Notes under the pieces: model-generated
The model's database searches: none
Seen by the model: only the letters and a program-made list of their open reading frames with translations
What the model was told of the DNA's origin: nothing
Source of the DNA: Candidatus Omnitrophica bacterium UBA6253
Lineage (GTDB): Bacteria; Omnitrophota; Gorgyraeia; Gygaellales; Profunditerraquicolaceae
Assembly (NCBI GenBank): GCA_002441245.1
Contig: DJVP01000011.1
Coordinates: forward strand, 53,295 to 117,294
DNA length: 64,000 nucleotides
Reading direction: 5' to 3'
Shown: positions 10,562-64,000 of the stretch, piece by piece
Layout: every line of letters begins with the position of its first letter
Position numbering within the stretch: the stretch's first letter is position 1
Position numbers and translations under genes: made by a program

Positions 10562-10879
10562 ATGTATGCGATAATTGAAGTTGGAGCAAAACAGTACAAT
10601 GTGAAAAAAGATGATATTATTGAAGTAAACAAGCAGGTATTTGAAAAAGGCAAGAATATTATCCTGGATAAAGTTTTGTTGGTTGGCAGTAGTAAAGCCG
10701 TAGAGATTGGACAGCCTTATGTTAAAGGCGCTAAGGTTGAAGCAGTGGTTCTTGGCCAGACTAAAGGCGAAAAGACTACAGCTTATAAATACCGCCGCAG
10801 AAAGAATTGGCATTGGGAGAAAGGACACCGTGCCCAGCTTACTGAGCTTAAAATAAAATCTATTGATTTAGGCCTGTAA
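10562..10879 (+). CDS. rplU: 50S ribosomal protein L21
   Basis: 105 aa. MYAIIEVGAKQYNV...KYRRRKNWHWEKGHRAQLTELKI is the bL21 signature. Confidence 0.9.
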   Translation: MYAIIEVGAKQYNVKKDDIIEVNKQVFEKGKNIILDKVLLVGSSKAVEIGQPYVKGAKVEAVVLGQTKGEKTTAYKYRRRKNWHWEKGHRAQLTELKIKSIDLGL

Positions 10880-11832
10880 TGTTCATTGACAGCTCTAAAA
10901 TAAACGTCCGGGCTGGCAGTGGGGGTAAAGGGTGCAAAAGTATCTACCGCGACAAGTATCAACGTCAAGGAAAAGCTGATGGCGGAGACGGGGGCAAAGG
11001 CGCTGATATTATCTTTCGCGCAGACCACAATCTGCTTACGCTTTTGGATTTTCAATATCATCGGCATTTTTTTGGCGCACACGGAGGCCACGGCAGCAGT
11101 AATCATAAAAAAGGCAGGGCCGCAGAGGATGTAATCGTACGCGTCCCGCTGGGGACAGTGATAAGAGATGCCACAACAGGTTCTCTTCTGCGTGATTTAA
11201 ATGAAGATGGGCAGGAAGTAATTGTTGCCAAGGGCGGAAAGGGCGGGATAGGCAATTGGCATCGTAAAGAAGCGACTCCCGGAGAGTCAGGCGAAGAAAG
11301 GGAAGTTATTTTAGATTTAAAACTCCTGGCTGATGTGGGGGTAGTGGGATTTCCTAATGCGGGAAAATCCACATTGATAACGGCAATATCAAATGCCCGG
11401 CCGAAAATTGCAGCTTACCCGTTTACGACTATGGGGCCGGTTTTAGGAATTGTAAATTCTGGGCATAAAAAATTTGTTATTGCGGATCTGCCTGGTTTGA
11501 TTGAGGGGGCTTCAGAAGGGCGCGGGCTGGGAGATAAATTCCTAAAGCATGTTGAACGTACCAAGGTCTTGATTCACATGGTGGATATTGCTGGTTTTGA
11601 GGGCAGGGACCCGGTAGATGATTATAAAAAGATTAACCTGGAATTAAAGAATTACAACAAAGTTGTTTATAAAAAACCGCAGGTTATTTGTGCCAACAAA
11701 ATGGATATTGAAGGCGCAGAGAAAAATTTAAAAAGGTTCAAGAAGTTAATTAAAAATCCTGTTTATGCGGTTTCGGCATTAGAGAAGACAAATTTAGGGG
11801 AGTTAATTGATGCGGTCGCAAAGAAATTATAA
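10879..11832 (+). CDS. obg: GTPase Obg/CgtA
   Basis: Obg N-terminal glycine-rich fold (GGDGGKGADIIF) followed by a G domain with GFPNAGKST and DLPG motifs. The start codon overlaps the rplU stop (TAATG). Confidence 0.9.
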   Translation: MFIDSSKINVRAGSGGKGCKSIYRDKYQRQGKADGGDGGKGADIIFRADHNLLTLLDFQYHRHFFGAHGGHGSSNHKKGRAAEDVIVRVPLGTVIRDATTGSLLRDLNEDGQEVIVAKGGKGGIGNWHRKEATPGESGEEREVILDLKLLADVGVVGFPNAGKSTLITAISNARPKIAAYPFTTMGPVLGIVNSGHKKFVIADLPGLIEGASEGRGLGDKFLKHVERTKVLIHMVDIAGFEGRDPVDDYKKINLELKNYNKVVYKKPQVICANKMDIEGAEKNLKRFKKLIKNPVYAVSALEKTNLGELIDAVAKKL

Positions 11833-12577
11833 AAGAATTGTAATCAAGATCGGCTCAAGCCTGTTTTCCAGCCAGAAGTCAAAGCTGGATATGGGGCTGG
11901 TTAAAAACATTGCCGGACAGATCTCTGATTTGATAAGGCAGGGCAAAGAGGTGGTGGTTGTTTCTTCGGGAGCTATTGCTTTGGGTATGTCAATTTTAAA
12001 GCTTACAAAACGGCCCAAAGAGCTGCAATACCTTCAGGCTGCCGCGGCCATTGGCCAGCATGAGTTAATGCACGTCTATAAGCTTGCGCTTAATAAATAT
12101 AAATTAAATTGCGCCCAGTTGCTACTTACCTGGGATGATTTCCTTGGAGTGCGTTATGCAAATGCAAAACATACACTGAATACATTGCTAAAATTAAAAT
12201 GTGTACCGATCATAAATGAGAACGACACAGTTGCAACTGAAGAGATCAAGTTTGGAGACAATGACCGTTTATCTGCCTTAGTCTCCATATTGGTAGGCTC
12301 AGACCTTTTAATTATTCTTTCTGATGTGGAAGGTTTATTGGATAAGAATAAAAAAGTTATACGCAGGGTGGATAAAATTACGGGTGAAATAAAATCTTTG
12401 GCTTGTCCGATCAATAAGAGGACCTGTGTTGGAGGGATGACGACCAAAATAGAGGCAGCGCGCATCGCCGTTGAAGGGGGAGTCCCTTGTGTAATTACTA
12501 ATGGGCGAAAGAGCAGAATTGTCAGCCAGTTGGCAAATAACCCTTTTTGCCAAGGTACTATATTTTTACCTAAATGA
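11807..12577 (+). CDS. proB: Glutamate 5-kinase (no PUA domain)
   Basis: IVIKIGSSLF...VVVVSSGAIALG...ENDTVATEEIKFGDNDRLSA matches the amino-acid kinase family of ProB. Confidence 0.85.
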   Translation: MMRSQRNYKRIVIKIGSSLFSSQKSKLDMGLVKNIAGQISDLIRQGKEVVVVSSGAIALGMSILKLTKRPKELQYLQAAAAIGQHELMHVYKLALNKYKLNCAQLLLTWDDFLGVRYANAKHTLNTLLKLKCVPIINENDTVATEEIKFGDNDRLSALVSILVGSDLLIILSDVEGLLDKNKKVIRRVDKITGEIKSLACPINKRTCVGGMTTKIEAARIAVEGGVPCVITNGRKSRIVSQLANNPFCQGTIFLPK

Positions 12578-32416: not shown

Positions 32417-33841
32417 ATGGCAGAAAAAATATACTTATGCTCTTTTAATCAGATGAATCTAGGGATTCGACAGATATACGCGTATTTGTTGAATGCTAAA
32501 ATATATTCTGAAATGATATTCGTTAATCAGAAAACAGATATTGTGGAAATGGCAAAGCATCTTTTGTCATCTAAAATTGTTGCCTTTAGTGTTTTTACTG
32601 ATGAAATGCCACTGGCGCGGAAGCTGTCTGCTGAAATAATGCGTAATCGGAAAAAGAAACATCCGATTATTGTATTTGGCGGGCATCATCCAACCTTGAA
32701 CGCTGGGGAGTGTTTAGAGTTTTGTGATTGTGTTGTGCGAGGTGAAGGTGAAGAAACATTATTAGATATTTGCAGAGATTCTCAAAAAATAGTAAATATT
32801 AAAAACATATCATATCTAGCTGGAGAATCTATTGTTGAGAATCCATTACGTGAGTTGGTGTCTGATCTGGATGAGTTGCCTTTCCCGAATTATGATGATT
32901 TAAATACACTCGCGACCTATCATATAATGACTAGTAAGGGGTGTCCGTTTAATTGCTCATATTGTTATAATAATGCATATCGGAAAATGTATGCCGGTAA
33001 AGGTAAGTATATTAGATTTAAAAGCATACCGTATGTCATAAAAGAATTAGAACGGGCTAAACAAATGTTCCCAGATATTAAAACTGTAGAGATTATGGAT
33101 GATAATTTCTTTATGCGAAAAATTGAAGAGATTATGTTATTTGCAGAGGAGTATAAAAGTAAGATTAGCTTACCGTTTTTTTGTTTAGCGAATCCAACGT
33201 ATGTTACAGGGGATAAGCTTCAAGTATTGAAAAGCGCGGGATTGGAACGCATTCAAATTGGAATTCAAACGGGTAGCGAAAAAATTAATTACTCTATTTA
33301 CGACCGAAAAATTCCGAATAAAAAGATTCTGGAGTGTGCGTATCTCTGTAAGAAATATTCTATTGCAGTTTTTTACGATTTAATATTCAATAACCCGTAT
33401 GAGTCAAATAATGATGTTAAAAAAACATTGCAGATACTTTTGAGAATACCAAAACCTTTCCATCTTCAGGGATTTAATTTAATTTTTTATCCGAACGCGG
33501 ACATAGCAATGAGAGCATTGCATGATGGGTATATACTTCCACGTACATCCGAACATGAAGAAGTAAATACTATTCAGAATGATAACAACAGCCCACTACG
33601 TTTTAGTAACTCAATTGGAAGCCCTTTTTGGAAAACTCATTATTCAACAAGCTCAAAAAAAATAAAATTAAATAATCTAATTGCTCTTTCTCAGTTCCTC
33701 CCGAATTATATAATACGTTTATTGTCTATTTTACCTGGTGATGTGTTGCAGCATGTGCGTTATTGGTTAAAAATTAAGAAAAAACTTATACCCGAAGAAG
33801 AATATCTTTTACGGTTGCTTTCAAGTAGCAAAGTTGAATAA
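32417..33841 (+). CDS. B12-binding-domain radical SAM protein (paralog 1)
   Basis: An N-terminal cobalamin-binding-like domain and a CX3CX2C motif (GCPFNCSYC). Confidence 0.8.
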   Translation: MAEKIYLCSFNQMNLGIRQIYAYLLNAKIYSEMIFVNQKTDIVEMAKHLLSSKIVAFSVFTDEMPLARKLSAEIMRNRKKKHPIIVFGGHHPTLNAGECLEFCDCVVRGEGEETLLDICRDSQKIVNIKNISYLAGESIVENPLRELVSDLDELPFPNYDDLNTLATYHIMTSKGCPFNCSYCYNNAYRKMYAGKGKYIRFKSIPYVIKELERAKQMFPDIKTVEIMDDNFFMRKIEEIMLFAEEYKSKISLPFFCLANPTYVTGDKLQVLKSAGLERIQIGIQTGSEKINYSIYDRKIPNKKILECAYLCKKYSIAVFYDLIFNNPYESNNDVKKTLQILLRIPKPFHLQGFNLIFYPNADIAMRALHDGYILPRTSEHEEVNTIQNDNNSPLRFSNSIGSPFWKTHYSTSSKKIKLNNLIALSQFLPNYIIRLLSILPGDVLQHVRYWLKIKKKLIPEEEYLLRLLSSSKVE

Positions 33842-39812: not shown

Positions 39813-41195
39813 TTGAGTGTGAAGGTTTTATTGGTGATTCCTATTAACAGAAGTTATGTAATAACACCTAGCCTAGGACTGGGATACATTGCTTCGGTTT
39901 TAAGATTACAAGGCCATAAGGTAAAGATTTTACATTGTATTAAGGAAAAGTTTACTTTTGGTGACTTTGATAATTATATCAAACAAAATAATTTTGATTT
40001 TATTGGAATACAAATGTTTACTTTTGACAGCACTTCGGTTAAGCGGCATTTGGATATAATTAAAAAGAATAAACCATCTACTACTACAATATTGGGGGGG
40101 TACCATCCTTCCGGTGATCCGCATGAAATTTTGAAAAAGTTCCCACAAGCGGATTTTGCTTTTATAAGTGAAACAGAGATAGCTTTTCCATTTTTCTTAG
40201 AAGAAATAAATAAAAAGGATCCTAATTTAAGTATTGTGCCAAATCTTATATGGAGGAACGGTGATAAAATAATTATTAATTCTCTAAAGATAATTGATGA
40301 TTTAGACGAAATTCCTTTTCCGGCATGGGATTTGATGGATCCAAGAACTTACCCCGAAGCTCCTCATGGCGGATTTTTTAAAAGTTTCCCTACCGCTCCG
40401 ATAATTATTACTCGGGGTTGTCCTATGGAATGTACGTTTTGTGCGGGTAAATCTATTACTACTAAAGAAATAAGAAAAAGATCAATTAATAACGTGATAG
40501 AAGAAATGAAATTCTTGAAGGTAAAATATGGTGTTAATGATTTTTTAATTGAAGATGAAAATTTTACGCTTCATAAAAACCTAGTTTATGATTTCTGCAA
40601 TCAGTTAATAAATCAACAACTAAAAGTTACTTGGAGCTGTCCTTCTGGGGTGAGATTAGATACGTTAGATTTGGCCATTTTGCAATTGATGGAAGAATCT
40701 GGCTGTCACTCTCTTGCCGTTGGTGTGGAATTCGGTTCGCAACGAATACATGATTTAACAAAGAAAAATTTAACTATCAAAATAATAAAAGAAAGGATAT
40801 CTTTGTTTCAGCATACTAAAATTAAAGTAACTGGTTTTTTTATGTTTGGTATCCCAGGAGAGACAGAGCAGGAGATGATACAAACGATTAAATTTGCCAA
40901 AGCTTTGAACATTAACCGGGCGCAATTTAATAATTTTATGCCTTTACCGGGTTCGTCATTATATGCTCAACTTAAACACGATGGTATGGATAGTATTGAT
41001 TCCGACCATTTCTTCGTTCACGATGTTGGTTATGTGCCGCAAGGTTTGACTAGAAAACGACTTAAGAATATTCAGCGTAGGGCTTATTTAGAATTTTATT
41101 TAAGACCTAAAATAATCGTTGGTTTGATTAAAGAAATTACTTCATTTAGACAACTATGTAGATTGATCAAAAGATTTATGGATGGTCTTACGTAA
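39813..41195 (+). CDS. B12-binding-domain radical SAM protein (paralog 2)
   Basis: CX3CX2C motif (GCPMECTFC) after an N-terminal B12-like domain. TTG start. Confidence 0.8.
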   Translation: MSVKVLLVIPINRSYVITPSLGLGYIASVLRLQGHKVKILHCIKEKFTFGDFDNYIKQNNFDFIGIQMFTFDSTSVKRHLDIIKKNKPSTTTILGGYHPSGDPHEILKKFPQADFAFISETEIAFPFFLEEINKKDPNLSIVPNLIWRNGDKIIINSLKIIDDLDEIPFPAWDLMDPRTYPEAPHGGFFKSFPTAPIIITRGCPMECTFCAGKSITTKEIRKRSINNVIEEMKFLKVKYGVNDFLIEDENFTLHKNLVYDFCNQLINQQLKVTWSCPSGVRLDTLDLAILQLMEESGCHSLAVGVEFGSQRIHDLTKKNLTIKIIKERISLFQHTKIKVTGFFMFGIPGETEQEMIQTIKFAKALNINRAQFNNFMPLPGSSLYAQLKHDGMDSIDSDHFFVHDVGYVPQGLTRKRLKNIQRRAYLEFYLRPKIIVGLIKEITSFRQLCRLIKRFMDGLT

Positions 41196-44571: not shown

Positions 44572-45588
44572 ATGATTAGTACTACTGAAAATAATCGTAT
44601 TGCAGTTGTTATCCCGTGTTACCGTGTTACGAAGCATATCCTTGATGTTATTACAGGGATTGGGCCTGAGGTATGGCGTATCTATGTAGTTGACGATAAG
44701 TGTCCTGATGAATCTTGGAAATATGTAGAAACAAACTGTAATGATTTGCGTGTTGTAATATTACGGCATGAGGTTAATCAAGGAGTTGGTAGTGCAGTAA
44801 TGACTGGTTATAAGGTGGCAATTGCAGATGGAGCTGATGTTATTGTAAAGATTGATGGTGATGGGCAGATGGACCCAAGTTTAATTCATGCGTTTACTAC
44901 ACCTATTTTGGTAGGGGAAGCGGATTACTCAAAAGGAAACCGTTTTTTTAACCTTGAGAAAATTCGCGCTATGCCTAAGGGGAGGCTTTTTGGTAATGCG
45001 GTATTATCATTTATAACTAAAATTTCTTCTGGTTATTGGGATTTATTTGATCCTTCTAATGGGTATACCGCAATTCATGCTGATGTAGCTCGACATTTGC
45101 CATTTGAAAAAATCAGCTCACGTTATTTTTTTGAAACCGATATATTATTTAGACTCAATACGCTACGTGCGGTTGTGGTCGATATACCTATGGATGCTCA
45201 ATATGGTAGTGAAGTTAGTAACCTTAAGATCCCAAGAATTATTGGTGAGTTTTTTATTAAAAATGCTCGCAATCTTTTAAAGCGAATCTTTTACAACTAT
45301 TATTTGCGTGATATGTCAATTGCATCTATAGAGTTGCCTTTGGGTTTGTTACTGTTTGTTTCTGGTTGTGGTTTTGGTGTTTACCATTGGGTTAATTCAT
45401 TGCAAATAGGTAGTAATACATCGGCTGGTACGGTAATGCTAGCCGCACTGCCAATTTTAATGGGGTCACAACTCATATTAGCTTTTCTTGGATATGACAT
45501 CGCGAACGTGCCGCGTAGACCTTTGCATAAGTTGCGACAGTTTTTAAAAAATACTTCGACGCATACTGGGTTATCAAGCGAAACATGA
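44572..45588 (+). CDS. GT2 glycosyltransferase with two C-terminal TM helices (GtrB/ArnC-like polyprenyl-phosphate glycosyltransferase)
   Basis: VVIPCYRV...VDDKCPDES...KIDGDGQMDP, plus C-terminal TM helices (LPLGLLLFVSGCGFGVY; MLAALPILMGSQLILAFL). Confidence 0.75.
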   Translation: MISTTENNRIAVVIPCYRVTKHILDVITGIGPEVWRIYVVDDKCPDESWKYVETNCNDLRVVILRHEVNQGVGSAVMTGYKVAIADGADVIVKIDGDGQMDPSLIHAFTTPILVGEADYSKGNRFFNLEKIRAMPKGRLFGNAVLSFITKISSGYWDLFDPSNGYTAIHADVARHLPFEKISSRYFFETDILFRLNTLRAVVVDIPMDAQYGSEVSNLKIPRIIGEFFIKNARNLLKRIFYNYYLRDMSIASIELPLGLLLFVSGCGFGVYHWVNSLQIGSNTSAGTVMLAALPILMGSQLILAFLGYDIANVPRRPLHKLRQFLKNTSTHTGLSSET

Positions 45589-47045
45589 AATCTGCAAATT
45601 TAGGTAATATGGCTATGTTAAGCGAAAAAAAGATCTATTTACTATATCCACCTATATCCAAAATGGAGAGATATTCTTCTGAAATTGGAAGTGCCGGGGG
45701 TGAACAAATTCCACTTGGGATTTTTTATCTCGCGTCTTATCTTAGGAAATTTGATTTTCAGGTGAAGGTCACTGATGCCGAAGCATTGAAGCTTGCATCT
45801 GCTGAGATAGTTTCAGAAATCGCTGATTTTGCTCCTAAATATGTTGGGATTAGTTCAACAACTGTGGCTTTTCACAGGGCTATTGAAATAGCTGAGGATA
45901 TACGAAAAACTAATCCTGAAATCATTATTATTTTAGGTGGTCCCCATGTAACCTCTAATCCTGAGCATGCACTTTCATCGGGGCTATTTAATTATGGAGT
46001 GCTCCGCGAGGGCGAAATTACTTTAATCGAATTACTGCAAGCATTGAACGAAAACAAAAATCCAAATACAATCTCTGGTATAGCATATCTCGATAAAAAT
46101 AAAAAACTGATAGTTACCTCGCCTCGAGAATATATTAAAAATCTTGATATTCTTCCATTTCCTGCATTTGATTTATTGCATGACCTGAATTTATACAAAC
46201 CGCAACCTTCAAACTATAAGACTCTTCCCGTAATTAATATGATTACTAGTCGCGGATGTCCAGGATTATGTACTTTTTGCGACAATAATACTTTTGGTAG
46301 AAATTATAGGAAGCGTTTAGCTGAGAACATCGCTGAAGAGATAAAATACCTGATACAAGAATTTAGTATTCGTGAATTTTTCTTTGTTGATGATACATTC
46401 TTAATTGATAAGGCTCGTATTTATAGACTTTTTGAGATTCTTAAACGGGAAAATATTTCCTTTTATTGGACTTGCGCAAGCCGGATAAATGATGTAGATT
46501 ATGAATTACTGAAATTCATAAAATCCAAGGGGTGTTGGCATATTTCTTTTGGGATTGAATCTGGAGATGAAAATATATTAAAGGTTATTAAAAAGAATAT
46601 TTCTTTGGAAAGGGTTACTGAGGTAATAAAATGGTGTAAGCAGTTAGGAATTAAAACAAAAGGTTTTTTTATTCTCGGGCATCCAACCGAAACGCTTGAA
46701 ACACTTGAAAAAACTATTAAACTTGCATGTAAATTACAGCTTGATGATATTGTAGCTACTATAAATACACCTATACCAGGATCGGTGCAGTATGCAGAGG
46801 CACTTAATTACGGGGCTATTGATAAAACGGACTGGACGCAATATAATTATTGGCGTCCAGTTTTTGTGCCGAATGGGCTTACCAAGGAAATATTATTAGA
46901 AAAGCATGGGGAGATATACCGGAAATTTTACTTGCGTCCACGAATTCTACTGCGATATTTTTTTGGATTCTTTGGAAAAGGAGGATGGAGAAGATTCTTG
47001 AATATCTCTAAGGCGAGTTTTTTTATATTTAAAAAGAACAGTTAG
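45585..47045 (+). CDS. B12-binding-domain radical SAM protein (paralog 3)
   Basis: CX3CX2C motif (GCPGLCTFC) after an N-terminal B12-like domain. Confidence 0.8.
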   Translation: MKSANLGNMAMLSEKKIYLLYPPISKMERYSSEIGSAGGEQIPLGIFYLASYLRKFDFQVKVTDAEALKLASAEIVSEIADFAPKYVGISSTTVAFHRAIEIAEDIRKTNPEIIIILGGPHVTSNPEHALSSGLFNYGVLREGEITLIELLQALNENKNPNTISGIAYLDKNKKLIVTSPREYIKNLDILPFPAFDLLHDLNLYKPQPSNYKTLPVINMITSRGCPGLCTFCDNNTFGRNYRKRLAENIAEEIKYLIQEFSIREFFFVDDTFLIDKARIYRLFEILKRENISFYWTCASRINDVDYELLKFIKSKGCWHISFGIESGDENILKVIKKNISLERVTEVIKWCKQLGIKTKGFFILGHPTETLETLEKTIKLACKLQLDDIVATINTPIPGSVQYAEALNYGAIDKTDWTQYNYWRPVFVPNGLTKEILLEKHGEIYRKFYLRPRILLRYFFGFFGKGGWRRFLNISKASFFIFKKNS

Positions 47046-47089: not shown

Positions 47090-48073
47090 GTGAAAGTTAA
47101 AATTAGTGCAATTTCATATCATCTACCAGATAAGGTTGAGGGTGTTGATGTGCTTCAGCGTGACAACCCTGATTGGGATATGCCGCGAATCCTTGAGAAA
47201 ACGGGTGTACATAACCGATATATTTCTTCTCCTGATGAAACTGCAGTTGATTTGGCATTTAAAGCTGGAGAGAAGCTGTTTGAGAATGCCTCGATTCGTA
47301 ATGATGTTGATTTACTTATCCTAGTTACTCAGTCTCCCGATTATGTTTTACCATCTAGCGCTTGCATTTTACAGGATCGGTTTTGTTTATTGAAAAACTG
47401 CATGGCGTTTGATGTCAATCTGGGTTGTTCTGGATTTGTCTACTCGATCAGTATTGCGGGAGGGCTAATAGAATCTGGTGTTGTAAGCAAGTGCTTAATA
47501 TTATGTGCGGATACCTATTCAAAATACATCAAAAAAAACGATCGAACATGTCGTCCGGTATTTAGTGATGGAGCGGCCGCTATCTTATTAGAAAAAAGTA
47601 ACACGGATTGTATTGGTCCATTTGAGTTTGGAACCGATGGTTCAGGCTATGACCGGTTAATTGTAAAAGACAGTGGTGCTAGAGGGATAAGTCAGAAATC
47701 TAATTCTCATCTGAGTTTTATTGAGATGCGCGGTAGTGATGTATTTCTTTTTACAATGCGCGTTGTCCCTGTAAGCATTAACAATCTTCTCAAGAAAGCT
47801 GGTATTGGCATTAAGGATATTGACGTATTTGTTTTTCACCAAGCTAGTAAATTTGTTATTGATAATTTGATACAAAATATGTCTTTGGATAGGGGGAAAG
47901 TTTTTATTAATTATGATTCTATTGGGAATACTGTTTCTGCATCTATACCTATTGCTCTCAAGGATGCAGTATTGAAAAGGCGTTTGAAAGAGGGGGATAC
48001 TATTATGATTGTTGGTTTTGGTGTTGGTTTATCTTGGGGGGCCGCGCTTATGCGTTGGTCAACAATATCATGA
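47090..48073 (+). CDS. 3-oxoacyl-ACP synthase III (FabH-like KAS III)
   Basis: Active-site Cys in LGCSGFVY, and His/Asn in the FHQAS and GNT regions. GTG start. Confidence 0.8.
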   Translation: MKVKISAISYHLPDKVEGVDVLQRDNPDWDMPRILEKTGVHNRYISSPDETAVDLAFKAGEKLFENASIRNDVDLLILVTQSPDYVLPSSACILQDRFCLLKNCMAFDVNLGCSGFVYSISIAGGLIESGVVSKCLILCADTYSKYIKKNDRTCRPVFSDGAAAILLEKSNTDCIGPFEFGTDGSGYDRLIVKDSGARGISQKSNSHLSFIEMRGSDVFLFTMRVVPVSINNLLKKAGIGIKDIDVFVFHQASKFVIDNLIQNMSLDRGKVFINYDSIGNTVSASIPIALKDAVLKRRLKEGDTIMIVGFGVGLSWGAALMRWSTIS

Positions 48074-48753
48074 TTATATTAACTGGTGCTTCAGGTGGAA
48101 TAGGCCGTGCCATACTACCTTCTTTGGTAACTCTGGATAATGTTATTGCAGTATATCATAAAAATCTTCCTGATATCAGCGGGATAAATGGCGTAACGTT
48201 ATATCAAGTTGATTTAACATCGGAATCAAAAGTTAATGATTTTGCTGCAGCCATGAAGGATCAACTTCAAAGAATTACGCTTATTCACGCTGCTGCTCTT
48301 AGCAGGAATGCGCTTGCTGCAAAGTTTAGCACAGAAGATTGGGATCAAGTTATTAATGTGAATCTTCGTGGTAGTTTTTTGTTTACCCGAGCGATGCTCT
48401 TACCTATGATACAAGAGAAATGGGGACGAATAATTTATATTTCGTCCGTTGCGGGAATGCGAGGTGCTCCGGGCACACTTGCATACTCGACTGCTAAGAC
48501 TGGACTCTTGGGAATGTCCCGAGTTATAGCTAACGAATATGCGCGGTTTGGGATTACTTCAAATGTGCTAGTTTTAGGTTATTTTAATACTGGCTTGATT
48601 GAAACCTTAAGCGAAAAACTGCGTAAAAAAATCTTAGAATTAATTCCATCGAGACAGTTAGGAAATCCCGCTAATGTCATTAATGCTGTAGAATTTCTAA
48701 TAAAATCAGAATATGTTAATGGTAGTGCAATGCATATTGATGGTGGCATATAA
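48070..48753 (+). CDS. Short-chain dehydrogenase/reductase (FabG-like 3-oxoacyl-ACP reductase)
   Basis: TGASGGIGRA Rossmann motif and catalytic YSTAKTGL (YxxxK). The ATG at 48070 overlaps the FabH stop by 4 nt (ATGA). The track ORF begins at 48034. Confidence 0.8.
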   Translation: MIILTGASGGIGRAILPSLVTLDNVIAVYHKNLPDISGINGVTLYQVDLTSESKVNDFAAAMKDQLQRITLIHAAALSRNALAAKFSTEDWDQVINVNLRGSFLFTRAMLLPMIQEKWGRIIYISSVAGMRGAPGTLAYSTAKTGLLGMSRVIANEYARFGITSNVLVLGYFNTGLIETLSEKLRKKILELIPSRQLGNPANVINAVEFLIKSEYVNGSAMHIDGGI

Positions 48754-57583: not shown

Positions 57584-58360
57584 ATGAAAGTAGTCATTTT
57601 AGCGGGTGGTAGAGGTACAAGGCTTAGCGAGGAAACCACTAGTATTCCTAAGCCGATGGTAGAAATTGGCAGTAAGCCAATTATTTGGCACATTATGAAG
57701 ATGTACTCTCATTTTGGTTTTAATGATTTTATTATCTGCCTGGGTTATAAAAGCTATATGATCAAAGAATATTTCTCTCATTATTTTATGCATATGAGCG
57801 ATGTAACTATTGATTTAAAGAAAAATGATGTTAAGGTTCATGCAACATCATCTGAGCCATGGAAGATTACTCTTGTTGACACCGGGCTTGAGACAATGAC
57901 CGGTGGTCGCCTGAAGCGCGTTCAAAAATATATAGGCCATGAAACTTTTATGATGACTTATGGCGATGGAGTCTGCGATGTAAATATTAGGGAGTTAGTG
58001 AAGTTCCATAAGGGCTGCGGAAAATCCGCGACAGTTACCGCTGTTCAGCTTGCCGGAAGGTTTGGCGCTTTAAGCATGAAAGATACAGGAATAGTCAGTT
58101 CTTTTTTGGAAAAACCTAAAGGTGACGGTTCCTGGATCAACGGAGGGTTTTTTGTGCTTGAGCCTGAAGTTTTTAATTATATCAGCGGAGATGAGACTAT
58201 CTTGGAATTTGATTCTTTAAAGAATATGGCTGTTGCTAAGCAATTATCCGCATTTAAACATAATGGTTTTTGGAAGTGTATGGATACATTAAGGGACAAA
58301 TCTGAGTTAGAAGCGCTATGGAATGATGGTAAGGCGCCATGGAGAAAATGGAAGGATTAA
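57584..58360 (+). CDS. rfbF: Glucose-1-phosphate cytidylyltransferase
   Basis: MKVVILAGGRGTRLSEETTSIPKPMVEIGSKPIIWHIMKMY closely matches RfbF/DdhA. Confidence 0.9.
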   Translation: MKVVILAGGRGTRLSEETTSIPKPMVEIGSKPIIWHIMKMYSHFGFNDFIICLGYKSYMIKEYFSHYFMHMSDVTIDLKKNDVKVHATSSEPWKITLVDTGLETMTGGRLKRVQKYIGHETFMMTYGDGVCDVNIRELVKFHKGCGKSATVTAVQLAGRFGALSMKDTGIVSSFLEKPKGDGSWINGGFFVLEPEVFNYISGDETILEFDSLKNMAVAKQLSAFKHNGFWKCMDTLRDKSELEALWNDGKAPWRKWKD

Positions 58361-58363
58361 AGA

Positions 58364-59350
58364 GTGATGGAAAGTAAGTTTTGGAAAAACAAGAAGGTCT
58401 TAATTACAGGTTTTGAAGGATTCTTGGGGTCTAACCTTACTAAAGCGCTTTTCTCTTCAGGCGCAAGAATATTTGGTTTAGATATCAAGGTCAGAAGAAA
58501 AGAAACTATTTTAACTGAACCTGACTATAAGAAAATTAGTGTTATTAAGGGCAGCGTAGCTAACTATAAATTAGTTCAGGGGATTATAAATAAAAATAAG
58601 ATTAATGTGGTATTCCATCTGGCAGCAGAAGCAATTGTATGCAGATGCAATGATAAGCCATTAAATGCTTTTTCTTCGAATATCGAAGGCACATGGAATA
58701 TTCTGGAGGCATGCAGGAATTTAAGAAATATTCAATCAATTATTATTGCTTCTAGCGATAAGGCATACGGCAGTCATAAGAAACTTCCTTATTATGAAGA
58801 TGCGCCATTGCAAGGTAATCATCCTTATGACGTGTCTAAAAGTTGCGCTGACCTGATAGCTTATACTTACGCGCATACTTATAGTTTACCGGTAGCGGTT
58901 ACCAGGTGCGGTAATATATACGGGCCGGGTGATTTTAATTTCAGCCGGCTTATTCCTGATGCGATGCGTTGTTTGTCTGAAGGCAAAACTTTACAGGTGC
59001 GCAGCGATGGTAGATTTATCCGCGATTATGTTTATATTGATGATATTGTAGGCGGTTACTTACGAATAGCCGAGTTATTAAAAAAGAAGGGGCTTTCCGG
59101 TGAATCGTTTAATTTAAGCAATGAGTGTCCGTTGACAGTCATTGAATTGTTGCAGAAAATAACCAAACTTAATTTATGCGGCAGTAAGTTAAGTTATAAG
59201 GTTCTGGATGTGGTAAAATACGAGATTAAGAAACAATACCTTTCTTCAGCTAAGGCCAGGCGTGTCTTAGACTGGAAGCCCGCTTATAGCTTAGGTGATG
59301 GTTTAAAAAAGACTGCCGAATGGTATTTTAGCCATTTTTCTAAAATATGA
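58364..59350 (+). CDS. rfbG: CDP-glucose 4,6-dehydratase
   Basis: VLITGFEGFLGSNL...YDVSKSCADLIAYTY. Confidence 0.8.
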   Translation: MMESKFWKNKKVLITGFEGFLGSNLTKALFSSGARIFGLDIKVRRKETILTEPDYKKISVIKGSVANYKLVQGIINKNKINVVFHLAAEAIVCRCNDKPLNAFSSNIEGTWNILEACRNLRNIQSIIIASSDKAYGSHKKLPYYEDAPLQGNHPYDVSKSCADLIAYTYAHTYSLPVAVTRCGNIYGPGDFNFSRLIPDAMRCLSEGKTLQVRSDGRFIRDYVYIDDIVGGYLRIAELLKKKGLSGESFNLSNECPLTVIELLQKITKLNLCGSKLSYKVLDVVKYEIKKQYLSSAKARRVLDWKPAYSLGDGLKKTAEWYFSHFSKI

Positions 59351-60087
59351 AGATATATTTTTTAGGGACGATGGGTTGGTTTGATACAAAGCTTGGCAAT
59401 ACGCTTTGTGTTTTGGTGGACACAGGCAAGGAATATATCATATTTGATGCCGGGACAGGTTTCTCTAAGATTGATAATTATATAAAAGACAGGCGTCCTA
59501 TCTATCTTTTTCTAAGCCATTTTCACCTGGATCATATTATTGGCCTGCATACTTTGAATAAATTTTCTTTTCCCCAGGGCATCAATGTTTTCGGGCCAAA
59601 AGGCGTCAAAAAAATGTTCAGCCTTATGATTAATGCGCCGTATTCCAAGCCTGTCAATAAACTTAAATTAGGGATTAAAGTTTCAGAAATTAGCCATAAA
59701 TCAAAATTTCCTTTTAATATCAAGTATAAGGAACTTTTACATACAACAGTTTGCTATGGATACCGGTTGGCCGCAGGGGGCAGCTCTATAGCCTTTTGCA
59801 CTGACACTGGCCCATGTAAATCAATAAACTCCTTGGGCGCAAACACAGATGTTTTAATAACCGAATCATCTTTACCTCCCGGCATTGTTGATAGAGGATG
59901 GCCGCATTTAAATCCTGAACAGGCAGCTAGAGCAGCCAAAACTTCAAAGGCAAAGAAATTAGTTTTAGTCCATTTTGACGCTGGCGATTATCCAAAGGAG
60001 ATCGATATAGGGTCAGCTGAGAAATCCGCCCGGAAGATCTTTAAAAACACAATAGCCGCAAGGGACGGGGATTGTTTGGATGTTTAA
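59347..60087 (+). CDS. MBL-fold metallo-hydrolase
   Basis: HxHxDH motif LSHFHLDHIIGL. Confidence 0.7.
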   Translation: MKIYFLGTMGWFDTKLGNTLCVLVDTGKEYIIFDAGTGFSKIDNYIKDRRPIYLFLSHFHLDHIIGLHTLNKFSFPQGINVFGPKGVKKMFSLMINAPYSKPVNKLKLGIKVSEISHKSKFPFNIKYKELLHTTVCYGYRLAAGGSSIAFCTDTGPCKSINSLGANTDVLITESSLPPGIVDRGWPHLNPEQAARAAKTSKAKKLVLVHFDAGDYPKEIDIGSAEKSARKIFKNTIAARDGDCLDV

Positions 60088-61130
60088 AATACATGACTAA
60101 TCAAATTAGTTTACCAAAAGACGATCTGGAACACATATTAAATAAAACACGCAGCTTATTTAAGGATGCTTATAAGAAGAAGTTTTTTATGACCGGCGGC
60201 ACTGGTTTTTTTGGGTTATGGCTATTAGAAAGCTTTGTTTGGATAAATGAGAAGCTTAATCTTAACGCTTCTGTGGTAGTCTTGTCACGCAAACCTGAGA
60301 TTTTTAAAGAAAAGTATCCTTATTTTAAGAAAATTAAATCTGTAAAATTTATTAAAGGTGATGTAAGTTCCTTTAGGTTTCCTAAAGGGCAGTATCACTA
60401 CATTATTCATGCTGCTACTGATAACAATCTTTCTTCGTCTCCATTGGATTTGTTTAGGAATAATATTGCCGGTACACAAAGAGTACTTGATTTTGCCAGG
60501 ACATGCCATAATGAAGCATTTCTTTTTACCAGTTCAGGGGCTGTTTATGGAGAACAGCCGTTTAAAATGTTGCGTATTCCGGAAGATTATCAGGGAGCAC
60601 CGGCCACTATTAATATTAATTCTGCTTATGGAGAGAGTAAAAGAGTTTCTGAGTTTTATTGCGCAAATTATGCCAGGGAGTTTGGCATTAACGTTAAGAT
60701 AGCGAGATGTTTTGCTTTTTTAGGGCCAAATCTACCGTTAAATATTAATTTTGCAGTGGGTAATTTTGTCAGAGATGCTCTGAATGGCGAGCCGATATGC
60801 GTAAAGAGCAATAAGCGCATATATCGTTCTTATTTATATTCGGCTGATCTTGTTATTTGGCTGTGGACAATTCTATTTAGAGGCAAGACAAATAAGCCAT
60901 ATAATGTTGGCTCGCCTAAACCTTGTTCTATAGTAGAATTAGCTGATTTAGTAGCAGAGGTTTTTTCCCCCAAGGTAAAAGTAGAAATTAAAAATAAAAC
61001 TAAGAATAATCTTAAACACATTGAACGCTATGTGCCTGACACTAATTTGGCGAAAAAAGAATTAGGCTTGCGTCAATTTATCAGTTTAACAGCCGGTATT
61101 CGCAAGATGGTTAATTATTATCGTTCTTAA
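60072..61130 (+). CDS. NAD(P)-dependent sugar-nucleotide epimerase/reductase (extended SDR)
   Basis: FFMTGGTGFFGLWL...YGESKRVSEFYCANY (YxxxK). Confidence 0.7.
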   Translation: MFGCLKYMTNQISLPKDDLEHILNKTRSLFKDAYKKKFFMTGGTGFFGLWLLESFVWINEKLNLNASVVVLSRKPEIFKEKYPYFKKIKSVKFIKGDVSSFRFPKGQYHYIIHAATDNNLSSSPLDLFRNNIAGTQRVLDFARTCHNEAFLFTSSGAVYGEQPFKMLRIPEDYQGAPATININSAYGESKRVSEFYCANYAREFGINVKIARCFAFLGPNLPLNINFAVGNFVRDALNGEPICVKSNKRIYRSYLYSADLVIWLWTILFRGKTNKPYNVGSPKPCSIVELADLVAEVFSPKVKVEIKNKTKNNLKHIERYVPDTNLAKKELGLRQFISLTAGIRKMVNYYRS

Positions 61131-61175
61131 ATGATGTTTGATGGACGACTGAAAGTAATCTAAAGAGGAGAGAAA

Positions 61176-62048
61176 ATGGCAGAAATAAAGATTGGAGATG
61201 TTTTAATAGGTGATAATCATCCTTGTTATATTGTTGCCGAAATCGGGATTAACCATAATGGGGATGTGGGGATAGCTAAAAGGTTGATTGATGTTGCGGT
61301 GGTGGCAGGCTGCAATGCGGTTAAATTCCAAAAACGCGATCCGGATTCATGTGTGCCATTGTCACAGCAGAATAAAATGAGAGAGACTCCTTGGGGTTAT
61401 ATTACTTATTTAGAATACCGTCGTAAAGTTGAATTTGGGGAAAAGGAATACAAGGAGATAGATGACTATTGCCGGAAAAAGAATGTCCAGTGGTTTGTTT
61501 CTTCCTGGGACCAAGTATCCTTAGAAGCTTTAGCGGATTTTGATTTGCCTTGCTATAAGATATCGTCCGCCTGCCTTACGGATATTAATTTATTAAAGGC
61601 ATTCCGTTCAAAGAAAAAGCCGCTTATTTTATCTACGGGGATGAGTACGATAGAGCAAATAGATAAGGCTGTGGAAGTCCTGGGCAAAAAAGATTTAATT
61701 ATTTTGCATTCTACAAGCACCTATCCGGCTTATTATGAAGAATTAAATTTACGTGCCATTAAGACTTTGAGAGAACGTTATGGTGTTTTGGTGGGGTATT
61801 CCGGTCATGAAACAGGCATTGCTTCTTCGGTTGCTGCGGTTGCCTTAGGGGCTTGCATGATCGAACGCCATATAACTTTAGATAGGTCAATGTGGGGTTC
61901 TGACCAGGCGGCATCATTAGAACCAAGCGGCACAATAAGGCTTGTCCGCGATATAAGGCTGGTAGAGACATCGATGGGTGATGGTATCAAGCGCGTATTT
62001 GACCGGGAATTGCCAATTATGGAAAGATTACGCAGGGTTGAAAACTAA
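61176..62048 (+). CDS. NeuB-family (N-acetylneuraminate/pseudaminate synthase-like) aldolase, short form lacking the antifreeze-like C-domain
   Basis: PCYIVAEIGINHNGDVGIAKRLIDVAVVAGCNAVKFQKR is the NeuB/PseI/LegI signature. 290 aa. Confidence 0.8.
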   Translation: MAEIKIGDVLIGDNHPCYIVAEIGINHNGDVGIAKRLIDVAVVAGCNAVKFQKRDPDSCVPLSQQNKMRETPWGYITYLEYRRKVEFGEKEYKEIDDYCRKKNVQWFVSSWDQVSLEALADFDLPCYKISSACLTDINLLKAFRSKKKPLILSTGMSTIEQIDKAVEVLGKKDLIILHSTSTYPAYYEELNLRAIKTLRERYGVLVGYSGHETGIASSVAAVALGACMIERHITLDRSMWGSDQAASLEPSGTIRLVRDIRLVETSMGDGIKRVFDRELPIMERLRRVEN

Positions 62049-62053
62049 AATCT

Positions 62054-63850
62054 ATGATTAAGCTTAGTGATTATGTTTTTAATTTTATCGCCAATCTAGG
62101 CGTTAAACATATTTTTATGGTTCCCGGTGGAGGCGCAATGCATTTGAATAATGCGCTTGGCCGGAATAAAAATATCAGATTTGTTTGTAATCTTCATGAA
62201 CAGGCAAGCGCTATTGCCGCAGAAGGCTACGCTAGAGTCACAAATAACCTGGGGGTAGCGTTGGTTACTACTGGCCCCGGCGGGACAAATGCCGTTACCG
62301 GGGTTGCAGGTGCATGGCTTGATTCTACTCCCTGCTTGTTTATTTCCGGCCAGGTAAAACTATCTGATTTAAAAGGTAATTCCGGAGTTAGGCAGCTTGG
62401 CGTTCAGGAAATAGATATTGTTTCCATTGTTAAGCCAATCACTAAATATGCCGTTACAATAATTAATCCTGATGAAATACGCTATCACTTGGAGAAAGCT
62501 GTATTTCTGGCTAAAAGCGGCAGGCCCGGGCCTGTGTGGATAGATATTCCATTGGACGTCCAGGCGGCAATGATTAATCCGCATAAACTAAAGAGTTTTA
62601 AAGAAGCGAATACTGAGATTAGCGTAAGGGGTAATTTTATAAGTACTAAAGTATCCCAGGTAATTGATCTATTGAATGCATCAGAAAGGCCGGTATTATT
62701 AGCAGGAAATGGGATAAGATTAGCTGGTGTAAAAGAAGAGTTCTTGAAATTAGCGGATAAATTAAATATTCCCGTTTTAACAACTTGGTTGGGATTGGAT
62801 TTAATTGGTGATTCTCATAAGTTGTATTTTGGCCGTCCGGGTTCAATTGCTTCGCGCGGAGCCAATTTCACTTTGCAAAATTCAGATTTCCTGTTGTGTG
62901 TTGGTGCCAGGCTTGATATGGCTATGGTTGGATATGATTATAGTAAATTGGCAAGATTAGCTAAAAAGGTAGTGGTTAATATTGACCAATCGGAAATTGA
63001 TAAGATAAAAGCGCGTATAGATATTCCGGTTTGCGCCGATGCAGGAGTTTTTATTAAAGAGTTTTTGTATCAAAGAAATAAAATTAAGAATAATCCAAGA
63101 AAGGCATGGTTTAGCTACTGCCGGAAATTGAAGAAGAAATATCCTATTATCCTGCCTCAATATAAGGCTTATAAAAAGTATGTCAGTACCTATGTTTTTT
63201 CGGATGTTCTTTCCGGTGTTTTAAAAAGCAGCGATATCTTAGTGCCTATGAGTGCTGGTTTTTGCGCAGAATTGATTTTCTTATCGTTAAGAATTAAAAA
63301 TGGGCTAAGGGTTTTTCATAACCGCGGCACAGGCTCTATGGGTTTTGCTATTCCTTCCAGTATTGGGGCGTGTTTGGCTTCCGGTGGAAAACGGACAATA
63401 TGCATAGAAGGAGACGGGGGTTTCCAGTTTAACTTTCAGGAGTTAGAAACAATTAAAAGATTAAAACTGCCGATCAAAATTTTTGTTTTTAATAATAAGG
63501 GTTACGCTTCGATTCGTTCTTCACAGATGAAATATTTTGGGACAAAATTCGGCGCTGATGAATCAAGCGGATTATCTTTTCCGGATACGATCAAAATAGC
63601 CAAGGCTTATGGTTTTAAAAGCAACCGTATTCTTAGCCACGTTGATATTGAAAAGAAGATTGCAGGGTTCTTGAGGTTGACGGGCCCGGCTCTATGCGAA
63701 GTAATGATAAAACCGGATGAAATAAGGGCCCCAAGTTTGGCATCGCGTCAGCAGGCTGATGGCGCGATGGTATCTGCTCCTTTGGAAGATTTGTGGCCAT
63801 TTTTACCCAGGAATGAATTTTTATCTAATATGCTTACTCCGGCATTATAA
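62054..63850 (+). CDS. Thiamine-pyrophosphate-dependent enzyme (acetolactate-synthase-like; YerE-like candidate)
   Basis: An N-terminal Pyr domain, a central domain, and a C-terminal PP domain with the TPP-binding motif GDGGFQFN...NN. 598 aa. Confidence 0.8.
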   Translation: MIKLSDYVFNFIANLGVKHIFMVPGGGAMHLNNALGRNKNIRFVCNLHEQASAIAAEGYARVTNNLGVALVTTGPGGTNAVTGVAGAWLDSTPCLFISGQVKLSDLKGNSGVRQLGVQEIDIVSIVKPITKYAVTIINPDEIRYHLEKAVFLAKSGRPGPVWIDIPLDVQAAMINPHKLKSFKEANTEISVRGNFISTKVSQVIDLLNASERPVLLAGNGIRLAGVKEEFLKLADKLNIPVLTTWLGLDLIGDSHKLYFGRPGSIASRGANFTLQNSDFLLCVGARLDMAMVGYDYSKLARLAKKVVVNIDQSEIDKIKARIDIPVCADAGVFIKEFLYQRNKIKNNPRKAWFSYCRKLKKKYPIILPQYKAYKKYVSTYVFSDVLSGVLKSSDILVPMSAGFCAELIFLSLRIKNGLRVFHNRGTGSMGFAIPSSIGACLASGGKRTICIEGDGGFQFNFQELETIKRLKLPIKIFVFNNKGYASIRSSQMKYFGTKFGADESSGLSFPDTIKIAKAYGFKSNRILSHVDIEKKIAGFLRLTGPALCEVMIKPDEIRAPSLASRQQADGAMVSAPLEDLWPFLPRNEFLSNMLTPAL

Positions 63851-63865
63851 AGCTATAGGGAGAAA

Positions 63866-64000
63866 ATGATGATCTCTAAAAATGAATTGCTGAAGCTTTT
63901 TAAGAAGGTGGAACTGATTGTTTTTGATTTTGATGGGGTGTTTACCGATAACCGGGTATTGGTTATGCAGGACGGGAAAGAAGGGGTCTTCTGCAGTAGG
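63866..64000 (+). CDS. HAD-IIIA phosphatase (KdsC/KDO-8-P or nonulosonate-9-P phosphatase-like), 5' fragment
   Basis: The N-terminus LIVFDFDGVFTDNRV carries the DxDGV HAD motif I. It is truncated by the window end. Confidence 0.5.
   Translation, partial: MMISKNELLKLFKKVELIVFDFDGVFTDNRVLVMQDGKEGVFCSR

Follow-up and report, generated by a model that had tools for sequence, protein, structure and literature searches.

We analysed a 64,000-nt stretch of DNA (positions 53,295 to 117,294 of contig DJVP01000011.1, forward strand) from Candidatus Omnitrophica bacterium UBA6253, hereafter the window. Its end carries a gene block with CDP-sugar genes, a short NeuB-type synthase, a thiamine diphosphate (ThDP)-dependent enzyme and a KdsC-like HAD phosphatase. 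The ThDP enzyme, encoded from position 62054, is related to YerE and JanthE, and most likely the genes of the block form a single pathway, which would yield a CDP-activated 3,6-dideoxyhexose branched at C-4 by a long polyhydroxyalkyl chain, a sugar of the cell surface.

Gene content of the locus

From position 57584 to the end of the window seven co-directional open reading frames (ORFs) follow each other, either spaced by 2 to 45 nt or overlapping at their start and stop codons. Coordinates refer to the window unless marked L001, and all ORFs of the block lie on the + strand.

57584..58360, + strand: rfbF (ddhA), glucose-1-phosphate cytidylyltransferase, which makes CDP-glucose (TIGR02623 equivalog, 414 bits, cut-off 300)
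58364..59350, + strand: putative short-type NDP-glucose 4,6-dehydratase (RfbG role), an extended short-chain dehydrogenase/reductase (SDR) of 328 aa (CDP_4_6_dhtase is the best family, below its cut-off)
59347..60087, + strand: accessory hydrolase of the metallo-beta-lactamase (MBL) fold, RNase Z/PhnP-like phosphodiesterase fold (Pfam Lactamase_B_2)
60072..61130, + strand: extended SDR of 352 aa, candidate side-chain ketoreductase (predicted YerF/ErwF role; Pfam Epimerase)
61176..62048, + strand: short NeuB-family synthase of 290 aa, dependent on phosphoenolpyruvate (PEP), without SAF domain (PF03102, 272 bits, residues 37-272)
62054..63850, + strand: YerE/JanthE-like ThDP-dependent carboligase of 598 aa (TPP_enzyme_N, M and C domains)
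63869..64000, + strand, running off the window end: KdsC/YrbI-family HAD phosphatase, first 44 of 165 codons (DFDGV motif in the window)

An initial annotation of the sequence had named rfbF, the dehydratase-type SDR, the extended SDR, the 290-aa NeuB lacking its C-terminal domain, the ThDP enzyme and the KdsC-like gene; all are real, as is the MBL-fold gene, and lie where it had placed them. Its succession of NeuB and phosphatase is correct as to the presence of both, but not as to their adjacency, as the ThDP gene is placed between the two and the phosphatase follows the ThDP gene.

The window was extended with public contigs. The exact 598-aa ThDP protein is found on eight of them, and the three examined (L001, L002 and L003) match the window with zero mismatches across 11,947, 7,769 and 4,171 nt, respectively; a window coordinate equals the L001 coordinate plus 52053. 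Past the window end L001 encodes the complete 165-aa HAD phosphatase, a KduD-like classical SDR of 251 aa, a radical-SAM/SPASM protein, a methyltransferase and RfbH, followed by two family 2 glycosyltransferases (GT2) resembling polyprenyl-phosphate glycosyltransferases and by further tailoring genes. In total, two methyltransferases lie downstream of the window.

RfbH, the E1 3-dehydrase, is encoded at L001 15094-16416 (approximately window 67147-68469) and scores 715 bits with NF011936, against a cut-off of 423. The gene lies 3.3 kb past the window end on a contig identical to the window, hence the initial report of no E1 gene was an edge effect, and a lack of 3-deoxygenation is not supported. 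Because rfbH belongs to the same operon, the acceptor sugar is probably CDP-4-keto-3,6-dideoxyglucose, the same as for YerE, rather than a 6-deoxyhexose, and the novel branched 6-deoxyhexose earlier envisaged as the product is not upheld.

The steps leading to this acceptor are differently well marked. RfbF belongs to its equivalog and shares 60% identity with its counterpart in the JanthE locus. The rfbG that had been paired with it is supported in its role as 4,6-dehydratase by motif and position, but not by equivalog score, since the 58364 protein reaches 202 bits with TIGR02622 (CDP-glucose 4,6-dehydratase), where the cut-off is 278. The solved structures that come nearest to it are those of dTDP- and CDP-glucose 4,6-dehydratases. 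Its SSDKAYG motif has S-D-K at the position of T-D-E in RmlB, which is the acid/base pair of CDP-glucose 4,6-dehydratases. In related loci, including a compact operon of Nostoc, this short-type enzyme likewise lies between rfbF and rfbH. We therefore regard it as a putative 4,6-dehydratase of a distinct short type, the product of which would be CDP-4-keto-6-deoxyglucose.

Two SDRs, the 352-aa extended and the 251-aa KduD-like enzyme, are candidates for the reduction of a branch ketone. The former has no dehydratase acid/base pair. Among solved structures it comes nearest to UDP-glucuronate decarboxylases, though with no more than 110 bits; with a 351-aa SDR of the JanthE cluster it shares 27% identity (133 bits), and it has no match to the 313-aa SDR adjoining JanthE. 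The MBL-fold hydrolase, of which all RNase Z/PhnP profile matches are sub-threshold, overlaps its neighbours by start and stop codons and is translationally coupled between the 4,6-dehydratase and the 352-aa SDR. It occurs in only four of the 80 related loci surveyed below, just 3' of the short-type dehydratase in three of them.

Family placement of the ThDP enzyme, synthase and phosphatase

Although it is annotated as acetolactate synthase in the databases, the 62054 protein falls below every acetolactate-synthase cut-off of NCBIfam (361 bits against 538 for TIGR00118), and the PRK models remain far below theirs. Its best solved relative is JanthE of Janthinobacterium sp. HH01 (PDB entry 8rph, 409-422 bits), ahead of 5ahk (276-282 bits) and of E. 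coli IlvB (238-243 bits), with BLASTP identities of 37%, 33% and 29%, respectively. We take 5ahk, deposited under the name "acetolactate synthase II", to be PpYerE. In a neighbour-joining tree without bootstrap, with two YerE-like references (JanthE and PpYerE, from PDB alignments) and one outgroup acetohydroxyacid synthase (AHAS), the ThDP proteins coupled to NeuB form one monophyletic clade that includes the 62054 protein and is sister to the JanthE clade. There is no firm clustering with IlvB or IlvG, and no small-subunit gene adjoins the ThDP gene; the next gene is the HAD phosphatase. By scores and tree, then, the protein is, as the initial annotation had proposed, YerE-like and not an anabolic acetolactate synthase. 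The CDP-hexose context proposed along with it is likewise borne out, with rfbF and the dehydratase in the window and rfbH on the identical contig.

JanthE is a YerE-like enzyme that couples 2-keto acids to ketones in vitro (PMC12188165), and the relatives that have been characterised work as carboligases on ketones rather than as simple decarboxylases (PMC12247030). The 62054 protein has its catalytic Glu49 in an LHEQ motif and the cofactor motif EGDGG...FNN at residues 452-481, in which G453 is kept in 91 of 93 family members. Its C-terminal tail PLEDLWPF corresponds to PLEDLSPL in JanthE and is missing from the alignments with PpYerE and IlvB, and the tyrosine at the JanthE engineering hotspot Y297 is kept (Tyr297/Tyr294). 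K567 is also a hotspot of the JanthE engineering study, which names the point mutation K567S. The residue aligned with it is S561 (63734-63736) in the 62054 protein, whereas arginine prevails among the proteins coupled to NeuB (71 R, 14 S, 6 K).

The physiological substrates of JanthE are described as unidentified (PMC12188165). Its own locus (L164 6805-15782, GCA_000335815.1) has the order rfbF-rfbG-rfbH-JanthE-SDR-acetaldehyde dehydrogenase-DmpG-like aldolase-SDR-glycosyltransferase, a layout that points to 4-hydroxy-2-oxovalerate and CDP-4-keto-3,6-dideoxyglucose as likely natural substrates.

The NeuB-type synthase encoded at 61176 likewise stays below the equivalogs of its family, with 266 bits for TIGR03569 (NeuB, cut-off 399.65) and 208 bits for TIGR03586 (PseI, cut-off 340.25). 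It stops at residue 290 and gives no match to the SAF (antifreeze-like) domain, while the motifs AEIGINHNG, KFQK, LSTGMS, GYSGHETG and ERHIT are invariant among its orthologues. NCBIfam holds no equivalog for either this protein or the ThDP protein. We infer that the synthase would condense an aldose phosphate with PEP to a 3-deoxy-2-ulosonate phosphate.

The complete HAD protein (L001 11816-12313) just exceeds the cut-off for the KdsC/YrbI subfamily (TIGR01670, 109.5 bits against 106.95), but falls short of the specific equivalogs for Kdo-8-phosphate (PRK09484, 122 against 208 bits) and KDN-9-phosphate (NF058599, 88.9 against 180 bits). Its putative role is the dephosphorylation of the ulosonate phosphate, and an ulosonic acid made through a phosphorylated intermediate, as suggested initially, is likely.

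Recurrence of the gene set and the CMP-ulosonate context

The 62054 protein has thousands of strong homologues, the top ones 58-64% identical and from widely different lineages. A scan with one genome per species gave at least 599 candidate stretches, of which the best 80 loci (52-63% identity) were inspected by tblastn with the proteins of the window and L001, Pfam checks of gap genes and domain-specific searches. Their hosts are Acidobacteriota, Planctomycetota, Verrucomicrobiota, Chloroflexota, Nitrospirota, Desulfobacterota-type lineages, Omnitrophota, Margulisiibacteriota, Gemmatimonadota, Myxococcota, Bacillota, Armatimonadota and two archaeal bins. The ThDP gene is set within a glycan operon in all 80, and the recurrence of the same gene set in 80 inspected genomes of many phyla places the arrangement far beyond chance.

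A NeuB-family gene adjoins the ThDP gene in 73 of the 80 loci, and in at least three of the other seven the sequence upstream is simply missing. The partner comes in three architectures. A short NeuB (58-68% identity) is present in at least 46 loci, 44 of which have a KdsC-like HAD gene beside it, mostly between NeuB and the ThDP gene. A NeuB-cupin fusion of about 509 aa, followed by a conserved protein of about 195 aa, is found in 22, and a 750-830-aa fusion of NeuB, SAF and a xylose-isomerase-like TIM barrel (+CBS) in four. Subclades of the ThDP tree track these architectures, the cupin-type loci forming one subclade. The DmpG-type aldolase and acetaldehyde dehydrogenase pair occurs in none of the 80 loci, nor among the Pfam matches of the window or L001.

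The CDP-sugar genes recur as well. An rfbF homologue is found in 41 of the 80 loci. In 47 of the 80 the flanks extend for at least 9 kb to either side, and 35 of these 47 encode RfbF or RfbH at a distance of up to 10 kb. The 352-aa SDR has homologues in 47 of the 80, mostly directly 5' of NeuB, and the commonest order is RfbF-dehydratase-RfbH-SDR352-NeuB-HAD-ThDP. The Nostoc operon (Nostoc sp., GCA_036919835.1) consists of rfbF, the dehydratase (330 aa), rfbH, an SDR, the ThDP gene, the NeuB/SAF/TIM fusion, an FkbM methyltransferase, a further methyltransferase and a glycosyltransferase, with nothing else between. Across the family GT2 and GtrA-like proteins are recurrent, and an FkbM-type methyltransferase is found in 42 of the 80 loci. 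The commonest tailoring set, which includes this methyltransferase, a GFO/IDH/MocA oxidoreductase and a TIM-barrel isomerase, differs from that of the window (MBL hydrolase, radical SAM, methyltransferases).

The reciprocal metagenome scan, anchored on the short NeuB, gave 80 loci with 57-66% identity. Among these, 16 have a ThDP orthologue and 28 a fusion of about 415 aa between CTP_transf_3, a CMP-ulosonate synthetase, and a HAD domain, while none of these 44 has both; the remaining 36 are mostly short contigs. Conversely, a CMP-transferase-like gene was found in only one of the 80 ThDP-anchored loci, at a distance of 8 kb, and no CTP_transf_3 gene was detected in the window (including a Pfam survey of 27-57 kb), in L001-L003 or in the 10 kb downstream. 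The two contexts are thus almost mutually exclusive. This exclusivity and the adjacency in 73 of 80 loci speak against the initial view of NeuB and phosphatase as a separate pathway.

With three exceptions, the NeuB tree divides into a CMP-context clade and a ThDP-context clade, in the latter of which the 61176 protein falls. Nevertheless, 87 positions are at least 90% conserved in both clades, and the two differ, conservatively, at only three. In our interpretation this near-identity indicates that the free ulosonic acid made by NeuB is probably of one kind in the two contexts, and that only its fate would differ, being activation with CMP in one and use by the ThDP enzyme in the other.

Some further features of the surveyed loci may be added. 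The NeuB-Cupin_2 fusion and the protein of about 195 aa lie directly 5' of the ThDP gene (L050 4145-6262; also L005, L009, L044 and 18 others). This protein has no Pfam match, displays invariant D-x-D-D-V, T, K and DD motifs and gives weak HAD-phosphatase matches in a PDB profile search (E 0.2-0.7); its motifs suggest a HAD-like phosphatase. The fusion of locus L057 has a weak D-lyxose-isomerase-like match. The archaeal bins (Altiarchaeota and an uncultured archaeon; L025 4372-6159 and L029 3240-5036) carry a ThDP gene of 56% identity with a NeuB-cupin fusion, and L029 has in addition a second, PpYerE-like ThDP gene (39% identity; 10594-12336) 5' of an SDR gene and rfbH. In L124 (1655-4863) a short NeuB (62% identity) and a HAD gene are followed by a distant ThDP enzyme (32% identity) that branches below both the JanthE and the NeuB-coupled clades, which may be an independent pairing of NeuB and HAD with another YerE-like lineage. 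The closest rfbF (85% identity) and dehydratase (69%) among the related loci are those of an Omnitrophota metagenome-assembled genome (L020).

The 28 CMP-context loci (L091, L102, L150 and 25 more; e.g., L091 4158-11432) usually have a gene set of their own, consisting of a KduD-like SDR, the CMP-transferase-HAD fusion, NeuB, KpsS/KpsC-like (Capsule_synth), sulfotransferase, Maf-like (MptE-like) and 2-hydroxyacid dehydrogenase genes. It is a speculative thought that the relatives here of KpsS and KpsC, two beta-Kdo transferases, indicate a Kdo-like acid, which would give a gastriose-like skeleton. The Pfam survey of these loci gave no pointer to the aldose precursor.

In the window itself, GC content falls from about 0.40-0.46 in a housekeeping part (PilM, secretin, RNase G, S1, tRNA synthetase) to 0.29-0.39 in a glycan island, with the shift near 32 kb, a drop typical of horizontally exchanged surface-glycan loci. 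Upstream of the block this island holds three B12-binding radical-SAM enzymes (32417-33841, 39813-41195 and 45585-47045), a FabH-like KAS III (47090-48073) and a classical SDR (48034-48753) amid glycosyltransferases and a Wzm/Wzt ABC exporter. The radical-SAM, KAS III and SDR genes suggest an unusual alkyl or methyl decoration of the glycan. Downstream of rfbH, a 694-aa protein (L001 18559-20643, approximately window 70612-72696) has no Pfam or NCBIfam match, and its neighbours are GT2, methyltransferase and radical-SAM genes.

The predicted pathway, its alternatives and known systems

The reading that we favour, with a probability of roughly 0.6, is that NeuB and the phosphatase make a 3-deoxy-ulosonic acid which the ThDP enzyme decarboxylates and joins to C-4 of the CDP-sugar. 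RfbF would make CDP-glucose, the short-type dehydratase would turn it into CDP-4-keto-6-deoxyglucose, and RfbH would remove the 3-hydroxyl group to give CDP-4-keto-3,6-dideoxyglucose. In the other arm the short NeuB would condense PEP with an aldose phosphate to a 3-deoxy-2-ulosonate phosphate, and the KdsC-like HAD would strip the phosphate, before or after ligation, to leave a gamma-hydroxy alpha-keto acid. The ThDP enzyme would decarboxylate this keto acid to an acyl-anion equivalent, which it would add to the CDP-sugar at the C-4 ketone; depending on the aldose phosphate used, the branch could be C6 to C8. The new side-chain ketone might then be reduced by the 352-aa extended SDR and/or the KduD-like 251-aa SDR. 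The downstream radical-SAM protein and methyltransferases would tailor the product, and the GT2 (and GtrA-like) proteins would hand the sugar to the glycan via a polyprenyl-phosphate carrier.

By two considerations, the simplest reading is that NeuB and the HAD phosphatase would supply the donor. A 3-deoxy-2-ulosonic acid is a 4-hydroxy-2-oxo acid, like the products of the aldolases, and the NeuB-HAD pair takes the slot held by an aldolase in the JanthE and erwiniose clusters. Given the genetic coupling of the pair to the ThDP enzyme, a long polyhydroxyalkyl branch is likelier than the two-carbon, yersiniose-type branch of the initial annotation.

Several observations weigh against this reading. 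JanthE and YpYerE accept pyruvate, so that a simple acetyl branch is possible (PMC9306805, PMC12188165). The NeuB family at 57-66% identity occurs also without a ThDP gene, and the HAD of the window is 40-51% identical to CMP-context HADs, compared to 30-36% for most ThDP-context HADs. Twelve of the 47 fully flanked loci have neither rfbF nor rfbH at a distance of up to 10 kb. Ulosonic acids of six or more carbons are mostly cyclic in solution and thus less obvious ThDP donors. The absence of an E3 reductase (RfbI/DdhD/AscD), noted from the beginning, held in a crude motif scan, which turned up no ORF with CX4CX2CXnC and RxYS in the window, in L001 or in the JanthE locus; E3-type domains (plant-type [2Fe-2S] and FNR-like) were likewise not among the Pfam matches of the L001 region or the JanthE locus, and such a gene may lie elsewhere in the genome. 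Finally, the ThDP tree was built without YpYerE, ErwE, MMAR_2332 or MyGE; the catalytic roles proposed for the NeuB-coupled clade derive from sequence and synteny.

Two independent pathways could share the operon, one adding a pyruvate-derived acetyl branch to the CDP-keto-sugar and the other making a free ulosonic acid that is separately activated and built into the glycan. The use of pyruvate by YpYerE and, in vitro, by JanthE (PMC9306805, PMC12188165) fits this, as do the close NeuB relatives in ordinary CMP-ulosonate loci and the likeness of the window HAD to theirs. Yet the activating enzyme is what fails to appear: CTP_transf_3 was not detected in the window or the 10 kb downstream, and it accompanies the ThDP gene in none of 44 and one of 80 loci. 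Moreover, three distinct NeuB architectures all abut the ThDP family, its subclades co-vary with the type of NeuB, and in the window the ThDP gene even lies between NeuB and the phosphatase. We consider such a double pathway unlikely, if still worth keeping in mind. Rather improbable, in our view, is an action of the ThDP enzyme on the ulosonate alone, to give a 2-deoxy-aldose or a ligation to a small acceptor, with the CDP-dideoxyhexose genes as mere neighbours in a glycan island. NeuB-ThDP adjacency is indeed tighter than ThDP-rfb adjacency, and 12 of 47 full-flank loci show no rfbF or rfbH nearby; but 35 of the 47 do, the compact Nostoc operon unites rfb, ThDP and NeuB-fusion genes, JanthE of the sister clade directly follows rfbFGH, and the characterised relatives are ketone carboligases, not simple decarboxylases (PMC12247030).

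The order of the two enzymes could also be reversed, with NeuB adding PEP to the C-4 ketone of the CDP-sugar and the ThDP enzyme then decarboxylating or extending the tethered keto acid. NeuB chemistry does yield an alpha-keto acid that a ThDP enzyme could use, and the pyruvyl-type branch would be reminiscent of shewanellose. However, NeuB enzymes act on aldehydes rather than on ketones, a phosphatase of the KdsC family would have no role, and NeuB clades that differ at three of 90 conserved positions should have an ordinary aldose-phosphate substrate in common, all of which makes this order very improbable. An ordinary anabolic acetolactate synthase large subunit, finally, is suggested by the three-domain architecture of the 62054 protein, by the best NCBIfam names and by database annotations. 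The curated cut-offs (361 against 538 bits for TIGR00118), the relative scores (JanthE 409, IlvB 243 bits), the lack of an adjacent small subunit and the glycan operons in 80 of 80 loci rule out this identity for practical purposes.

If the NeuB-fed carboligation is extended to the whole clade, 3-deoxy-2-ulosonic acids made by NeuB would be the natural donors of a phylum-spanning YerE/JanthE-like ThDP family, which would link them, with loss of CO2, to CDP-4-keto-3,6-dideoxyglucose. Hybrid branched monosaccharides of 12 to 14 carbons, resembling gastriose or caryophyllose, would result; they may be common in the surface glycans of bacteria that are uncultured, of cyanobacteria and of some archaea. 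For this wider proposition we see the odds as about even. It would join the CDP-3,6-dideoxyhexose and NeuB/KdsC ulosonic acid routes in one pathway, predict higher-carbon branched sugars in many poorly known phyla, and provide a physiological role and natural substrates for many proteins labelled "acetolactate synthase" or "thiamine pyrophosphate-binding protein". An annotation as "sialic acid synthase" beside such ThDP genes would then not indicate sialic-acid-type glycans. YerE-like enzymes are in demand as catalysts in the making of chiral tertiary alcohols; the choice would be widened by a clade that had evolved towards polyhydroxylated C7-C9 donors. In the searchable literature we found no paper linking NeuB-type synthases with YerE-like enzymes or rfbH and no description of the widespread cassette; reviews of YerE-like enzymes treat aldolase-linked clusters only.

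The predicted pathway is a variation on the unifying scheme that Steitz et al. (2022) proposed for acyl-branched sugars. There, the rfb genes provide CDP-4-keto-3,6-dideoxyglucose and a pyruvate aldolase the gamma-hydroxy 2-keto acid; both are joined by a YerE-like ThDP enzyme, and a YerF-like reductase finishes the branch (PMC9306805). Nearest to the present block are the erwiniose cluster of Pectobacterium atrosepticum (ErwE/ErwF/ErwI/ErwJ) and the JanthE locus, which likewise combine rfbF-rfbG-rfbH, a YerE-like carboligase, one or more SDRs and enzymes for a gamma-hydroxy alpha-keto-acid donor; ErwE refuses pyruvate and takes 4-hydroxy-2-oxo acids (PMC9306805). Their donor comes from a DmpG/BphI-type pyruvate aldolase with acetaldehyde dehydrogenase, whereas here a PEP-dependent NeuB-type synthase and a phosphatase would supply it. 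The 62054 protein also belongs to a separate sister clade of JanthE and has the canonical GDG motif in place of the CDG of JanthE. In yersiniose A synthesis of Yersinia pseudotuberculosis (YerE/YerF) a ThDP enzyme of the acetolactate-synthase superfamily acts on the same CDP-4-keto-3,6-dideoxy-D-glucose, after which reduction of the branch ketone follows (PMC9306805), but YerE, compared here by its description only, uses pyruvate for a C2 branch, and the scheme has neither NeuB nor phosphatase.

In its long branch the expected product would resemble caryophyllose and gastriose (MMAR_2332 of M. marinum and MyGE of M. gastri, both compared by description), for which C7 and C8 polyhydroxy 3-deoxy-2-keto acids are proposed as donors, leading to C6-C7 branches (PMC9306805). 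Gastriose is O-methylated, and methyltransferases are recurrent in the present cassette. Those donors are thought to arise from aldolase/citrate-lyase-family pyruvate aldolases acting on unphosphorylated aldoses, in contrast to the PEP and phosphorylated intermediate predicted here. With KDN- and Kdo-like ulosonic acid pathways the block shares a short NeuB (57-66% identity, only three clade-specific positions) and a KdsC-family HAD; the loci of those pathways have a CTP_transf_3-HAD fusion, KpsS/KpsC-like or Maf-like transferases and no ThDP gene, whereas the window presents the reverse, a ThDP gene and no detected CMP-synthetase. Anabolic AHAS (IlvB/IlvG/IlvI) shares the superfamily, the three-domain fold and 29% identity with the 62054 protein, which differs in its scores below the curated cut-offs, the absence of an adjacent small subunit, the additional C-terminal tail and its place in a glycan operon.

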